From a phage, in NCBI GenBank assembly GCA_025823825.1, contig GCA_025823825.1_4720.1: a DNA stretch of 64,000 bases. One strand, 5' to 3'. This document shows positions 7,386 through 12,388 of this stretch, in pieces (positions within the stretch are counted from its first letter, which is position 1; each line of letters begins with the position of its first letter). Made by a program: the position numbers and the translations under genes. A model generated the notes under the pieces. It was not told the DNA's origin and did not search any database. It saw nothing but the letters and a program-made list of their open reading frames with translations.

Positions 7386-7419
7386 CTCCTCCCCAGGAAA
7401 GGTGTGGGGAGGAGTTTTT
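7386..7419 (+). terminator. stem-loop plus T5 (intrinsic terminator-like)
   Basis: CCTCCTCCCC / GGGGAGGAG stem followed by TTTTT, just upstream of helicase start. Confidence 0.45.
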
Positions 7420-7449
7420 ATCATACATTCTATTAAATCGAGCGCGATT

Positions 7450-9531
7450 ATGTTGGATAGAATCAATCGTCTAATGAACCGAATAACGGTTAAAAATCAG
7501 AGTAACAATACCGTGCATATCGGGGGTATCGATGCCTGGCGTCTTTCAGATGACATTCAGCGAATATGGGGTACCTCCCGATTTATGAAACATATGTTTC
7601 GTAATTTCTCTTCTAGTGGACTCAGCCTCCACAACTTTTACCTCCCCGATTTCGTTTATATTCTCGAGACGATCATCGAAGCAAAGAATACCCGCAGTAA
7701 CAAACGCATGCTGAAACACCTTATTGAGGTACTGCTACAGGAAACCTGGTTGCAAAATACCACAATCGAGCAACCTGCAATCCTCGATAAAGCACGCATG
7801 AACAAAATGCTAACGCTCTCTTTGTTCGATTATCAAGATGAGTTTATCGACATCTATAACCGTAACGTACCTAAATACCGACTGAAAGGATACGTGTGTG
7901 CGATGGGTGCTGGTGCGGGTAAAACAATCACCGCACTGGCATTAAGCTCCGCAATGAACGTCGATGTATTTGTGGTCTGCTGTCCTAAGAACACCATGCG
8001 TTCAGCATGGCAATCCGATGTAAACAAAGCCATCGTTGACCCTGCAACAGAAACCGCGTTCTGGTCAGATACGATGCCACCATCACAGCTGCAGAAAAGC
8101 GATAAGTACTATTTTCTGCATTATGAATCGATGGGTTTATTAAACGATGTAATGATCAAGCATAAACGCACAGCGAAGCGCGTGTTGATCGTGGTTGATG
8201 AAAGCCATAACTTCAACGACAAGAACAGTCAACGTTCCCAACGACTGGTTGATCTCGTACAGACGATGCGTCAGACCATGAATGCGGATGTGCACGTCTT
8301 GTTTATGTCAGGTACACCTGTTAAACAAATGGGTTCTGAGATGATCCCATGTTTAGGTTGTATCGACCCGATGTTCCAAGGACAGGTGGTCGATAGCTTC
8401 AAAGCGATTTACGGTTTAACCAGCAGTCGCGCTAACGATATCCTCAGACATCGTCTTGGGTTCATGATGCATGTCGTACCTAAAGAGGCTTACCGTAAAA
8501 CCCGTCCGGAAGTTCAGGATGTTTACGTGAAGCTCCCTAACGGTAGCGATTATACCATCTCAAGTATCCGCGACGACATGGCGATATTTGTACGCGATCG
8601 GGCGAAGTATTACAAGGATAACTGGGGACACTACAGAAAGATTTTTGATGACGCCTTGGACTACTATCGTAAGACTATTCGTACCGACGGAGAACGTAAA
8701 GAGCTATCTCGATACGAATCGATTGTTGCTCGTTTCCAGAAAGGTTACGACCCCGTCAGAGACAAAGAAGATGCGATGTTCTGCAACGCGTTTGAAAAAC
8801 GTTCCATCATGCCGGTTCTTCCTTCTGATTTAAGGATTGCTTTCAAAGACGCTAAGAGTGTCATCAAGTACGTTGGGTTGAAAATTCAGGGTGAGGCGTT
8901 GGCCCGTGTTCTCGGTGCAGCCCGCATTCGGTGTCATGTCGATATGGTGGAGTACATCGACTTCGAAGGGTATATCAACAACGCTGAAGCCAAGGTGTTG
9001 ATCTTCACGTCGTACGTTCAGGTGGTTGAGCGTGTCGACAACATGCTTCGTGATGCGGGTTTCTTACCGGAACCCATTTACGGGAAGACCAACAAAAACA
9101 TCAACCAAATACTTGCTCGTTTACGCGACGATCCCGACAGCGGCCCCGCTATCGCAACATTTGATAGCTTAGCTGAAGGGGTTCCGATGTTGATGTGTAA
9201 CGTGGGTCTCTTCTTGAACAACCCATGGCGTTCATCCGATGAAATCCAAGCCATCAGCCGTCTCGATCGTGTAGGGCAAACGCAACCGGTTCGGATTTAT
9301 CGTTTCATGTTAGATACGGGAAGCGAGGGTAACGTTTCTACACGTAGCCACGAAATCATGGAGTTAAGTCGGCAGCTTGTTGAAGAAATCACGGGTGTCA
9401 AATACGTGGTGAACAAGCAAGACGATGTTAACTTGCAAGAAACGTTGGCGATGGAAGGATACGATCAATACGTTACCGTAAACACCACGGAATACGATAT
9501 TAAACCACGACCTGCGTTCTTGGAATGGTGA
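7450..9531 (+). CDS. SF2 (SNF2/DExH-like) helicase
   Basis: Walker A GAGAGKT and DExH box VVDESHNF; track start 7402 is a GTG inside a terminator hairpin, so ATG 7450 (MLDRINRL) is preferred. Confidence 0.7.
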   Translation: MLDRINRLMNRITVKNQSNNTVHIGGIDAWRLSDDIQRIWGTSRFMKHMFRNFSSSGLSLHNFYLPDFVYILETIIEAKNTRSNKRMLKHLIEVLLQETWLQNTTIEQPAILDKARMNKMLTLSLFDYQDEFIDIYNRNVPKYRLKGYVCAMGAGAGKTITALALSSAMNVDVFVVCCPKNTMRSAWQSDVNKAIVDPATETAFWSDTMPPSQLQKSDKYYFLHYESMGLLNDVMIKHKRTAKRVLIVVDESHNFNDKNSQRSQRLVDLVQTMRQTMNADVHVLFMSGTPVKQMGSEMIPCLGCIDPMFQGQVVDSFKAIYGLTSSRANDILRHRLGFMMHVVPKEAYRKTRPEVQDVYVKLPNGSDYTISSIRDDMAIFVRDRAKYYKDNWGHYRKIFDDALDYYRKTIRTDGERKELSRYESIVARFQKGYDPVRDKEDAMFCNAFEKRSIMPVLPSDLRIAFKDAKSVIKYVGLKIQGEALARVLGAARIRCHVDMVEYIDFEGYINNAEAKVLIFTSYVQVVERVDNMLRDAGFLPEPIYGKTNKNINQILARLRDDPDSGPAIATFDSLAEGVPMLMCNVGLFLNNPWRSSDEIQAISRLDRVGQTQPVRIYRFMLDTGSEGNVSTRSHEIMELSRQLVEEITGVKYVVNKQDDVNLQETLAMEGYDQYVTVNTTEYDIKPRPAFLEW

Positions 9532-9537
9532 TTAAGA

Positions 9538-9575
9538 AGCCCTGCCGTCAAGCAGGGCTTTATGCTGCGTTTGTT
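9538..9575 (+). terminator. intrinsic terminator-like hairpin after helicase gene
   Basis: AGCCCTGC-CGTCAA-GCAGGGCT followed by T-rich run. Confidence 0.5.
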
Positions 9576-9626
9576 GCAAGATCGTATGACGTATATGCGT
9601 TGTACTTATTTAAAAAGGCAGAATAA

Positions 9627-11081
9627 ATGAAACTCAAACAAAGCTGGAAAGACGAACTTCTCGCGTTAGTAAACAACAAAAACAGTTTACAGCTGACATT
9701 AGACGACGTAAAATTTGAACTAACTGAACCGGTAAGCGAAGTGCCCGGAACAGTCGTCGTTACGATCAAACCGAACGATGATAGCCGTTACTTTAACGAG
9801 CAGTCTCTGACCTACATCCGTCGAGACATCGCTAAAAACTTCACCGGGATCCCGTTACGTGTTATCGTTAAAAATGATACCGTCGTAAGGGATATCATCA
9901 ATACGATTGCTGAACGTTACGGATTGGTATTTGACACAACCGTTGACTTCCTCGAATCAGAGCTGAATAAGCAGATTACGTTCGAAGACACCGGTATTAA
10001 AGACATTACGGTTCCGGTTGCAAACACGTCTTATGTTTGGGCTGGTAATCTTCAGTTCAATATCGCTAACGATACGTTAAGCTTGATTACGATCATCAAG
10101 GAAACCAATCTTACGAATCTGGTTTATCTGGATGGCGTTGAAGCTGACACAACCGGATCGTTATTATTAGCAACGGCCTCGATTATCGACGATAACGGAA
10201 ATACCGAAACAACTGAAGGTGTCCTTGATGCCGAGTACTTCCAGAATGTCCTGAATGTCATGGTTCGTTATGGTGATATTACCAGCGAACAAATGCAACA
10301 AGCAATGCAGACAATTAACCAAAACGAAGACGTTCGTGAAGTGGAGGTTAAGTCATACGGCGACTCTGAGCTGTTGGTAACCACAAAGAAAGATTGGGCT
10401 ATCGGTAACCTTAAGGGCGCTATGGCAGTTGTTCGCAACGCTCAACCGAAACCAATTCAGTACATTCTCAAAACGAATGGCGGCTCCGTTACACTAGCAT
10501 TGGACGGTTGGACAAATATTTCCATCGATTGGGGTGATGGGAATAAAGCAACATTACCAGGCGGACAAACTCGCGGATTCCACGAATACAGTGACGGTAC
10601 AGAACGTACGATTGTAGCTACTGGTGTCCTCTCAAACCCTGAAGCACCAACACAGACACAAACCATCAGCGGCGATAACATCACTGAAATCGTTGACTGG
10701 AACAACGGATTACCGCAGGCTGTACAATTAACGGGATTAACCAGTTTGATTAAGGTTCCCGATTATATCCCGTCATACTGGACAACGTTGGAAAGTTTGT
10801 TCGAGAGCTGCTCATCGATAAACGACGTAAACATCACGAAATGGAATACCGGTAACGTCACATCAATGAAGAATTTGTTCTTTGGCTGTAACGTCTTCAA
10901 CCAACCGATCATCGTATGGGATGTTACCCATGTAACAAATATCGACAATATGTTCTCGGGATGTTCGGCGTTCAACCAGGATCTAAGGATGTGGTCATTC
11001 CCAGCGGATACTTCCCGCAACAACTACGATAACGGTGCTACAGCCTGGCGGTCAGAGTATCGTCCAAGCTTCGATTTGTAA
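9627..11081 (+). CDS. DUF285 (BspA-like) repeat protein, possible virion or adhesion protein
   Basis: C-terminal repeats FFGCNVFNQPIIVWDVTHVTNIDNMFSGCSAFNQDLRMW match the DUF285 repeat pattern. Confidence 0.5.
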   Translation: MKLKQSWKDELLALVNNKNSLQLTLDDVKFELTEPVSEVPGTVVVTIKPNDDSRYFNEQSLTYIRRDIAKNFTGIPLRVIVKNDTVVRDIINTIAERYGLVFDTTVDFLESELNKQITFEDTGIKDITVPVANTSYVWAGNLQFNIANDTLSLITIIKETNLTNLVYLDGVEADTTGSLLLATASIIDDNGNTETTEGVLDAEYFQNVLNVMVRYGDITSEQMQQAMQTINQNEDVREVEVKSYGDSELLVTTKKDWAIGNLKGAMAVVRNAQPKPIQYILKTNGGSVTLALDGWTNISIDWGDGNKATLPGGQTRGFHEYSDGTERTIVATGVLSNPEAPTQTQTISGDNITEIVDWNNGLPQAVQLTGLTSLIKVPDYIPSYWTTLESLFESCSSINDVNITKWNTGNVTSMKNLFFGCNVFNQPIIVWDVTHVTNIDNMFSGCSAFNQDLRMWSFPADTSRNNYDNGATAWRSEYRPSFDL

Positions 11082-11096
11082 AAAAAAAAAAAAAAA
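11080..11096. repeat. A17 homopolymer (T17 on minus strand)
   Basis: 17 consecutive A overlapping the TAA stop of the DUF285 gene. Confidence 0.9.
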
Positions 11097-11108
11097 TAGT
11101 TAGCATAT

Positions 11109-11146
11109 CTTCCTCCCTACCCATAACGGGCGGGGAGGAAGGTTTT
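11109..11146. terminator. bidirectional terminator-like hairpin
   Basis: CTTCCTCCCTACCC / GGGCGGGGAGGAAGG stem with TTTT on the plus side and the T17 run on the minus side, between convergent genes. Confidence 0.55.
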
Positions 11147-11159
11147 ATGGCGTTATAGC

Positions 11160-11498
11160 TTAGAACCAGAGTTCTTTCATGAGGTAGGCTTCCATATCGT
11201 AGATAAGCCACGCATCGGGGATTTCTAAAGGATCGTCTTCGGTTAAGGTCAGCATGTGCAGGGCGAACGCACGCTTGATATCTTCCAACAGCTTATCATC
11301 ACCGTAATCCTCGGGTAGTTTACGGTCAACCAGCTGGGTTTGTTTATAGACGTCGCGGAACGCTTCAGGGCTGTGTTTGTCCATCGGGAATTGTTCAGCA
11401 GCCTGAACCATCGTCAACGTCCAGCTTACAACATTGTAACGCTCACCGTTAATTTCACTGAACTGATCATCGATTAAACAGATTTGTTGTACGTTCAT
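11160..11498 (-). CDS. hypothetical acidic protein
   Basis: 112-aa ORF at end of a minus-strand operon. Confidence 0.5.
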   Translation of the reverse strand: MNVQQICLIDDQFSEINGERYNVVSWTLTMVQAAEQFPMDKHSPEAFRDVYKQTQLVDRKLPEDYGDDKLLEDIKRAFALHMLTLTEDDPLEIPDAWLIYDMEAYLMKELWF

Positions 11499-12388
11499 TC
11501 ATTTTCTCCATTCTTATCTTGGTCGCAATCACACTCTTCGACGTCTTTCTTACTTAAACGTAAGACACCTAGTGCAGCATGCTTGAGTTCTTGCAAAGCG
11601 CTTTTCAGCTGACCTTCTTCATCGAAATCAAAATACTTCTCGTTGTAGCTTAATGCCGGAATCATATTTACGAGAGGTTCGATGGCGGGCATCAGCATTT
11701 CAATGACGACCTTAGGATCGACAAAACGTTCAAACCCTTCAGGAAGTTTGCTCGCTACAACCTTATCGTTCTTGATGTAGAATTTGTTCTTGAATAGATC
11801 GTCAAGAATAGCATTCTCTTCATCCGTACGTTTTGCGTGAGGACGATCGATCATCTGCACAAACACACCACTCAACGCTTCAGGCAAAGTCGGATTTTCG
11901 CGAAGATAAGTTCCGGCCGGAATTTCAATGTCGATCTTCGTCCACTCAACAACCTGATGGTCTCGCGTATAGATGACGTCAACTTCCCATGCCAGACCAT
12001 CAGCGCTTTCTACGGTGTAACGTGTTTTCGCCTGGCCTTCAGGAGCCATACGTTCGATCGCATCAAACATCTCGACTGGGATTTCGACTTCGCTTTCCGT
12101 TGCATCGCCTGGACCGCGATACACCTTCGTGGTCATGATGTATTTCGGTTCTTCGTTATCGATCTGTATAGCTCGTGCTCGTACTTGACCTTTCACACCA
12201 CCAACGGCCGTGTTATCAAACAACCATTGATGTTGCACCATATGTTCGATTTTTGATGCGACTTGACGAAGACGTTCAACACCGTCTTCGGCCAGTTTAC
12301 CAAAGAAGACCAGCTCACGTTCCTGCTGTGTCTCACCACTTAACATCATTAAATTGGCGATTTGTTTCACGCCTCTTACTTTTGACAT
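11495..12388 (-). CDS. hypothetical protein
   Basis: 297-aa ORF, 4-nt overlap with downstream gene. Confidence 0.5.
   Translation of the reverse strand: MSKVRGVKQIANLMMLSGETQQERELVFFGKLAEDGVERLRQVASKIEHMVQHQWLFDNTAVGGVKGQVRARAIQIDNEEPKYIMTTKVYRGPGDATESEVEIPVEMFDAIERMAPEGQAKTRYTVESADGLAWEVDVIYTRDHQVVEWTKIDIEIPAGTYLRENPTLPEALSGVFVQMIDRPHAKRTDEENAILDDLFKNKFYIKNDKVVASKLPEGFERFVDPKVVIEMLMPAIEPLVNMIPALSYNEKYFDFDEEGQLKSALQELKHAALGVLRLSKKDVEECDCDQDKNGENE

Follow-up and report, generated by a model that had tools for sequence, protein, structure and literature searches.

What is a repeat family typical of bacterial surface proteins doing in a phage gene? The question is raised by a coding sequence at positions 9627..11081 of a 64,000-nucleotide stretch of phage DNA (GenBank assembly GCA_025823825.1, contig GCA_025823825.1_4720.1), the whole of which is called the window below. 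A first-pass annotation, made from the letters alone, had read the product as a DUF285 (BspA-like) repeat protein and suggested a host-recognition or fibre component, or else a horizontally acquired domain. The coding sequence is complete on the plus strand, exactly as listed earlier, with an ATG start, 484 amino acids and a TAA stop at 11079-11081. The DUF285 identity is borne out, and the annotation overlooked a DUF7941 domain at the N-terminus, residues 4-182, which places the protein in the virion. Our overall model, which we consider reasonably probable, is a two-part chimallivirus virion protein made of a DUF7941 anchor and an exchanged, host-binding head. The basic identification is unsurprising, as it is already known from the RefSeq annotation and a 2026 preprint, and the cautious functional guess agrees with the current literature. 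The protein is thus another allele of a recently described kind of protein and not a new kind of system; what our analysis adds is a sharply bounded head cassette and a confidently modelled DUF285 head that has no solved relative.

The region 9000-12000 is 88.3% identical at the nucleotide level to Escherichia phage vB_EcoM_Goslar (Goslarvirus, a nucleus-forming jumbo phage). Judged by this identity and by the synteny described below, the window comes from a Goslar-like nucleus-forming jumbo phage, i.e., a chimallivirus. The positional ortholog is Goslar gp161 (HOV27_gp161, YP_009820846.1), which is 78.6% identical at the amino acid level and has the same length, the same neighbours and the same DUF7941 and DUF285 architecture. 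The gene can be divided into the following regions, where pLDDT is the predicted local distance difference test score and pTM the predicted template modelling score:

9627..10076, plus strand: globular N-terminal DUF7941 domain, the proposed anchor/acceptor, residues 1-150 (PF25613, phrog_1037, Foldseek match to 9xqd_0, column entropy 0.11)
10077..10175, plus strand: linker, residues 151-183, low pLDDT, highly conserved, 5' recombination boundary (pLDDT, invariant residues, identity drop against contig L008)
10176..10337, plus strand: helical connector, residues 184-237, start of the variable cassette (helices at 202-215, 220-232 and 234-237, pLDDT 83-95; entropy 0.90)
10338..10706, plus strand: beta-sandwich region, residues 238-360, with an IDWGDGN motif at residues 300-306, the most variable segment (model strands; ColH PKD match, E-value 0.0036; entropy 1.37 for residues 283-345)
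10707..11078, plus strand: solenoid, residues 361-484, with an 'L..VP..IP' entry coil, three DUF285/PARCEL units and a C-terminal cap (DUF285 E-value 4.3e-21; pLDDT 94.4, pTM 0.88)

The N-terminal part matches the Pfam family DUF7941 (PF25613) over residues 4-182 (E-value 1.6e-23, 84 bits against a gathering score of 27) and the PHROG family phrog_1037, "virion structural protein" (E-value 1.3e-19). Only positions 5-188 of the 276 in the DUF7941 profile are covered, which indicates that the C-terminal subdomain is missing and that the globular N-terminal part and the linker are present. When the full-length model was compared with the PDB using Foldseek, the only significant match was chain 9xqd_0 (E-value 1.3e-5, probability 1.00, target-normalised template modelling score 0.59, 149 columns). 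This chain is PHIKZ127 (phiKZ gp127), also a DUF7941 protein. In phiKZ, gp127 is located where the gp139-dimer band ends in every star lobe of the outer peripheral baseplate, which is described as the platform for fibre attachment (PMC13250141). The two proteins share the DUF7941 N-terminal fold, and gp127 is a virion protein of a chimallivirus, while their sequence similarity is near noise (BLASTP E-value 0.06). Furthermore, gp127 has 290 amino acids, a full DUF7941 C-terminal subdomain and no DUF285 head, and it is present once per star lobe and six times per virion (PMC13250141), in contrast to the approximately 110 copies estimated for gp161.

Sequence conservation follows the same division, as the mean column entropy for residues 1-150 is 0.11 across 20 orthologs. 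The linker at residues 151-183 ends with a GSLLLAT junction motif, and L153, T155, I156, I157, L165, Y167 and S178 are invariant even when paralogs are included. In the monomer model, the pLDDT is below 50 for residues 152-174. Low confidence in the monomer combined with invariant residues is what a segment folding on a partner would be expected to show.

Virion proteomics, which the first-pass annotation had proposed as a check, has already been done for the ortholog. A bioRxiv preprint from April 2026 reports the Goslar virion structure together with quantitative proteomics, and lists gp161 among ten Goslar proteins with DUF7941 (10.64898/2026.04.21.720040). In CsCl-purified virions, gp161 was identified by 27 peptides at 53.8% coverage, and its copy number was estimated as 111, range 74-174 (Table S4, 10.64898/2026.04.21.720040). 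The family is reported to be restricted to chimalliviruses with members that are abundant virion proteins, and gp22 (~580 copies) and gp23 (~2,140 copies) are among the most abundant proteins of the Goslar virion (10.64898/2026.04.21.720040). DUF7941 proteins are predicted by AlphaFold to assemble as head-to-tail oligomers, with the linker docked on the following subunit's N-terminal domain, purified gp22 forms filaments in negative stain, and an unexplained density in the peripheral baseplate accommodates the phiKZ gp126-gp127 dimer (10.64898/2026.04.21.720040). On this basis, the authors proposed a "DUF7941 fibre cloud" for initial host recognition; in the literature we searched, this preprint alone treats DUF7941 substantively (10.64898/2026.04.21.720040). 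The filament-forming gp22 and gp23 have the same anchor module as the protein studied here, but they lack added binding-type domains and are 5-20 times more abundant than gp161.

Virion membership is therefore well supported, through the ortholog gp161, and is much firmer than host binding. The suggested role as a fibre component holds up indirectly, through the presence of gp161 in virions, its listing with the DUF7941 filament proteins and the match of the N-terminal model to phiKZ gp127. The domain content, the anchor's structural match and the mosaic with its breakpoints are likewise shown by the analysis. Docking into filaments and host binding, on the other hand, are steps that we infer, the latter from the domain types and from a mosaic of conserved anchor and swapped head that is typical of receptor-binding proteins.

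This mosaic is evident from the comparison with Goslar, where five neighbouring proteins are 92-99% identical and the DUF7941-DUF285 protein is 78% identical. Identity to gp161 is 96% for the anchor (residues 1-182), 80% for residues 183-282, 56% in the beta-sandwich (283-345), 70% for the DUF285 units (386-467) and 29% for the C-terminal cap (468-484), i.e., the head of gp161 is a different allele. At the nucleotide level, the flanks are ~95% identical, identity falls to 50-76% from ~10300 to 11100, and it is 92% again at 11101. The same pattern holds among 56 orthologs, where the anchor (residues 1-183) is 86-100% identical with a median of 96%, whereas the rest of the protein goes down to 36% with a median of 73%. 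Column entropy after residue 183 is 0.9-1.4, versus 0.11 for residues 1-150.

The boundaries can be placed precisely using the related contig L008 (protein P0053). The two sequences are essentially identical over 2.7 kb of upstream DNA and over the gene's first 548 nucleotides, with one difference inside the gene. Identity then drops abruptly from 99.9% to about 50% at nucleotide 10175, which is codon 183 and the last residue of GSLLLAT. Past this point, identity is 34-70% up to the A-run that overlaps the stop codon, and it returns to 98% from nucleotide 11100.

Substitution rates at nonsynonymous (dN) and synonymous (dS) sites were estimated by the Nei-Gojobori method, with no ratio defined where dS was saturated. 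The comparison with L008 gives a dS of 0.008 for the anchor and saturation for the head, while the one with contig L004 gives 0.05, 0.24, 1.9 and 0.09 in successive segments from residue 183 onward. In every segment where it could be calculated, dN/dS is 0.02-0.41. Such low ratios, combined with jumps in dS between segments, point to recombination in which diverged alleles have been pasted in, each under purifying selection. Local positive selection as the cause of the head divergence was rejected, given these ratios and shifts in dS of one to two orders of magnitude between adjacent segments. The nearest relative also changes along the protein, from P0053 (100%) for residues 1-182 to P0001 (97-98%) for residues 183-385 and P0002 (92.7%) for residues 386-467. 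From these alignments, the gene reads as a recombination mosaic with defined boundaries, and this is what we add to existing knowledge of the family.

Gene conversion from a 584-amino-acid paralog was considered as a source of the head and rejected, since the paralog heads are 34-51% identical to the window head and hence no closer than distant orthologs. Sorting the heads into discrete allele classes by single-linkage at 75% identity also failed, as 51 of the 56 sequences chained into one group; this chaining is consistent with mosaic intermediates.

In T-even and P2-like phages, mosaic genes for tail fibres and receptor-binding proteins combine a conserved N-terminal attachment part with a C-terminal specificity part that is exchanged at conserved junctions. 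The gene studied here shares this design of attachment and specificity parts, a likeness that we draw from general knowledge. However, the folds are unrelated, there is no trimeric shaft, no adjoining chaperone gene and no significant similarity to a solved fibre, and a filament of DUF7941 subunits is predicted to serve for display in place of a rigid fibre.

The head itself ends in the repeats that gave the protein its first name. A Pfam search found DUF285 (PF03382) at residues 386-467, covering profile positions 26-106 of 120 (E-value 4.3e-21, 75.3 bits against a gathering score of 25), so that the DUF285 reading was not refuted. The motif quoted in the first-pass annotation is literally present as F418-F-G-C421-N-V-F424-N-Q426...W431-D-V433..V436-T-N438..M442-F443. 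Three tandem units are found at residues 386-411, 412-437 and 438-463 (nucleotides 10782-11015), followed by a C-terminal cap at 464-484. Their landmarks are spaced 25-26 residues apart (F392/F418/F443, C395/C421/C446, W406/W431/W456, and N landmarks likewise). Two of the three units are canonical, and the first is degenerate. The repeats make up about 80-100 amino acids, roughly the last fifth of the protein, and not the C-terminal third as first described.

The 26-residue repeat was described in 2010 under the name PARCEL as patchily distributed and horizontally mobile, with a function that was then unknown (PMC2996958). The NCBIfam single-repeat model TIGR02167 ("PARCEL repeat") narrowly missed its cutoff, with 27.1 bits against 30 for one unit at residues 391-416, and another NCBIfam PARCEL model also scored below its cutoff (53.5 versus 500). 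The Pfam evidence for DUF285 outweighs the near-miss of TIGR02167. Bacterial DUF285/PARCEL (TIGR02167) surface proteins, from Mycoplasma, Listeria and others, have the same repeat of ~26 residues, the same F..C..FNQ...W framework and variable hydrophilic positions, and the patchy distribution of this bacterial family has been shaped by horizontal transfer (PMC2996958). The bacterial proteins are either secreted or lipoproteins and often contain long arrays; the protein in the window, by contrast, lacks an export signal, carries a phage anchor domain and has three units. The N-terminus, MKLKQSWKDELLALVNNKNSLQ, has neither a hydrophobic core nor a lipobox cysteine, as read from the sequence with no dedicated predictor run. 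The label "BspA-like" does not go beyond an NCBI product name, given that neither LRR_5 (PF13306) nor any other leucine-rich repeat (LRR) Pfam family matched the protein at E-value <= 1 and that no signal peptide or lipobox was seen. Hints of an LRR were limited to weak matches to 4gt6, a "cell surface protein" (E-value 0.0065, with no stretch passing alone), and to the N-terminal LRR of TLR3 (E-value 0.4).

A full-length AlphaFold2 model, built from 35 homologs, has a mean pLDDT of 83. It consists of an alpha/beta domain at residues 1-150, helices at ~179-237, beta-strands at ~238-360 and very short strands of solenoid type at 361-484. A separate model of residues 265-484 reached a pLDDT of 94.4 and a pTM of 0.88. 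When this head model was compared with the PDB using Foldseek, there was no significant neighbour, and the best E-value was 0.11 among weak matches to CBM86, CBM32, fucose lectins and cupins. Because these matches are not significant, we do not claim a carbohydrate-binding fold. Sequence searches of the PDB gave no match for the whole protein or for a protein with five DUF285 stretches, and a search with the family profile gave transketolase and TLR3 only, at noise level. In terms of prediction, the DUF285 head can thus be modelled confidently and has no solved structural relative. Matches in BFVD were to a Goslar "tail protein" paralog, to virion structural proteins of PhiPA3, RAY, EL and Eowyn, and to 26-residue-repeat proteins of other phages.

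The beta-sandwich region contains a WGDG...H.Y...Y.I motif, and the family profile matches ColH PKD domains over the IDWGDG...H.Y region (E-value 0.0036). The PKD families of Pfam (PF00801/PF18911) had no match at E-value <= 1 in the window protein, and the paralog P0066 had an E-value of 0.012, which does not reach the threshold for acceptance. We describe the beta-sandwich as PKD-like or CBM-like, and the protein is not filed as a demonstrated member of PKD, CBM or LRR_5.

How might such a protein work? In the model that we favour, the anchor consists of the DUF7941 domain (residues 1-150) and the linker (151-183), a module that the protein shares with phiKZ gp127 and with gp22 and gp23 of Goslar. 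The N-terminal domain would accept, and the linker would donate, head-to-tail contacts with other DUF7941 subunits, so that the protein becomes part of, or attaches to, filaments that lie at or beyond the outer peripheral baseplate. With ~110 copies versus ~2,700 of gp22 and gp23, it could be an interspersed or terminal minor subunit that carries the head outward. The head, i.e., everything after GSLLLAT, comprises the helical connector, the PKD-/CBM-like beta-sandwich and the short DUF285/PARCEL solenoid, and would be displayed towards the outside. It may bind a host surface structure, probably a glycan, and thereby raise the chance of first contact. Relatives leave the anchor nearly unchanged and exchange the head, or the DUF285 repeats alone, by homologous recombination between the junction motif and the downstream A-run and terminator. 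We hold only tentatively the further reading that the solenoid and the beta-sandwich are a true ligand-binding head, present in many copies per virion on a flexible DUF7941 network, with swaps at the GSLLLAT junction that retarget or broaden adsorption across the Enterobacteriaceae.

Several points weigh against this model. The gp127 chain in 9XQD is an AlphaFold3 model docked in a map of ~4.4 Å, and the Foldseek match of the anchor is therefore partly a comparison of prediction with prediction. The Goslar cryo-EM maps have no density for DUF7941 proteins (10.64898/2026.04.21.720040), so that the location of the protein depends on phiKZ and on predictions. The error of the copy numbers is ~+/-50%, and the virion preparation also held contaminants from the nucleus shell and PhuZ (10.64898/2026.04.21.720040); the source of the gp161 virion data is, moreover, a preprint. 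The carbohydrate-binding resemblance of the beta-sandwich is not significant (Foldseek E-value >= 0.1, PKD profile E-value 0.0036). Finally, heads with 99% identity occur under both Salmonella and Shigella labels while heads with 39% identity both occur under E. coli, and the head allele as a marker of host genus was rejected on the available assembly labels.

An alternative function for the same location would be a ligand-free cap or length regulator that terminates or branches the DUF7941 filaments, with the head as a passive spacer whose variation is tolerated drift. The DUF7941 match to positions 5-188 of 276, in which the C-terminal subdomain is missing, fits such a role, and ~111 copies against ~2,700 of gp22 and gp23, roughly 1 in 25, would suit a minor subunit that sets length. 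However, gp23 also lacks the C-terminal subdomain and is still the most abundant filament subunit. A drifting spacer is also difficult to reconcile with head alleles that are each under purifying selection (dN/dS 0.02-0.41) and with a compact, confident model (pLDDT 94), and exchange of the whole cassette on a fixed anchor is the pattern of a receptor-binding protein. We regard a cap or regulator as unlikely.

The protein could also sit elsewhere than on a baseplate fibre, either as a decoration of the capsid or neck or as a packaged, injected protein. The estimate of 74-174 copies is compatible with this, as ~110 copies would fit 10 per vertex at 11 vertices; the Goslar maps contain no assignable density for the protein, and the gene lies among replication and transcription genes and in no tail-gene cluster. 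Yet phiKZ gp127, which alone among DUF7941 members has been placed in a map, lies in the outer peripheral baseplate and is matched by the anchor model, the Goslar capsid has been modelled at 3-4 Å without gp161, and a mosaic head is atypical of internal proteins, which makes this placement distinctly improbable. A role outside the virion, in or on the infected cell, appears very improbable to us. The protein would then be a BspA-like adhesin, a superinfection-exclusion factor or a binder of LRR type that targets a host defence protein, and its proteomic signal would be contamination, which could be imagined since the virion preparation also carried non-virion assemblies and since the gene is a separate transcription unit between terminators. 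But no signal peptide, lipobox or hydrophobic segment is present in its N-terminus, MKLKQSWKDELLALVNNKN, and neither LRR_5, another LRR family nor the PADLOC defence-system libraries matched the protein. In addition, its N-terminal half belongs to the family reported as chimallivirus-restricted, with abundant virion proteins as members.

The age of the fusion between DUF7941 anchor and DUF285 head bears on the remaining suggestion, a horizontally acquired domain. A contig with an anchor of only 40% identity (P0111, 844 amino acids, with more repeats) has the same architecture at the same place next to the HD and helicase genes, and the 584-amino-acid paralog, about 48% identical and with more DUF285 units, is located elsewhere in the same genomes. 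These recurrences imply that the fusion is old in this clade. Recent capture from bacteria is accordingly not a supported reading, given both the relative with the 40%-identical anchor, which has the same architecture and the same HD/SNF2-helicase neighbourhood, and the paralog, which has the same architecture. It is the head cassette that moves horizontally, from one related phage to another.

Outside this clade, the nearest homolog in Serratia phage PCH45 sits in a cluster of DUF7941 paralogs and lacks DUF285, which makes the fusion specific to the Goslar clade. The PCH45 locus (L012, 46640-55170) has three DUF7941 paralogs within 8 kb, beside a DUF7208 protein and a RuvC-like gene. DUF285 is absent from all three, which shows that other chimalliviruses join this anchor to C-termini of other kinds. 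Contigs of 235-247 kb that amount to near-complete Goslar-like genomes were also observed in Shigella, Salmonella, E. coli and Enterobacter assemblies (e.g., P0010, P0025, P0029, P0036, P0044), which suggests that lytic Goslar-like jumbo phages frequently accompany cultures of bacteria, either as contaminants or in a carrier state.

The gene order around the protein is that of Goslar gp159-gp164, with an HD-domain protein on the minus strand followed by a SNF2-type helicase and the DUF7941-DUF285 gene on the plus strand. Downstream, on the minus strand as in Goslar, follow gp162, gp163, a SF2 helicase and genes for beta subunits of the multisubunit RNA polymerase. The helicase and the DUF7941-DUF285 gene (7402-11081) form a plus-strand island, as nearly all long open reading frames around them are on the minus strand. 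For the SNF2-type helicase, the reading frame at 7402-9531 has a mechanical GTG start at 7402 and 709 amino acids, while Goslar and related contigs annotate 693 amino acids with a start near 7450. A tblastn search found no second copy of the gene in the window, and no tRNA genes were found in the 64 kb. The DUF7941-DUF285 gene is a small unit of its own with terminators on both sides, and the flanking elements are:

9536..9561, plus strand: hairpin terminator after the SNF2-type helicase gene (stem AAGCCCTGC/GCAGGGCTT, loop CGTCAA, then TTTAT; RNA fold -18 kcal/mol, z -2.9)
9581..9600, plus strand: upstream block ATCGTATGACGTATATGCGT, 27-46 nucleotides 5' of the start codon, with two TATG motifs, largely conserved
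11080..11096, plus strand: stretch of 17 A that overlaps the TAA stop and marks where the variable cassette has its 3' boundary (11-12 A in most relatives)
11107..11143, no strand assigned: strong hairpin between convergent genes, likely a bidirectional terminator (plus strand -29.3 kcal/mol, z -5.45; minus strand -25 kcal/mol, z -4.8)

Both flanking hairpins were confirmed by RNA folding. The Goslar annotation has a terminator at the position matching the hairpin at 9536-9561, and the hairpin at 11107-11143 lies between the gene and the convergent gp162. A scan for sigma-70 promoters and intrinsic terminators was set aside, as its sites were no commoner than in shuffled sequence and both hairpins were missed. 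The A-run, which is a T-run for the convergent transcript, has 17 A in the window versus 11 in Goslar, and a G interrupts its counterpart in L005. In L008, the loop CGTCAA of the upstream hairpin is replaced by its exact reverse complement, TTGACG, and L004 and L007 carry the exact reverse complement of the entire, imperfect downstream hairpin. By sequence, these flipped hairpins look like inversion of palindromic terminators.

No sigma-70-like site was found upstream of the start codon. The block ATCGTATGACGTATATGCGT is exact in the window, Goslar and L008 and has 1-3 mismatches in L004, L005, L006 and L007. It is unique in the window even with up to 3 mismatches allowed, and a repeated promoter motif was rejected on this single occurrence. 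The block may be a candidate phage promoter or regulatory element, which is a guess.

Host recognition by nucleus-forming jumbo phages is poorly understood, and it is of interest since these phages evade many DNA-targeting defences. The gene belongs to a family that has been proposed as a long-range "fibre cloud" for host recognition, and its DUF285-headed member is the only hot spot of allele exchange in a neighbourhood that is otherwise 92-99% conserved. The defined exchange boundaries count as circumstantial evidence that the protein acts at the host interface, and they provide a precise junction for head swaps. If the ligand-binding head is real, DUF285, a fold that is widespread and lacks a solved structure, would receive its first functional assignment, and the junction would be a ready engineering joint for the host range of nucleus-forming jumbo phages.

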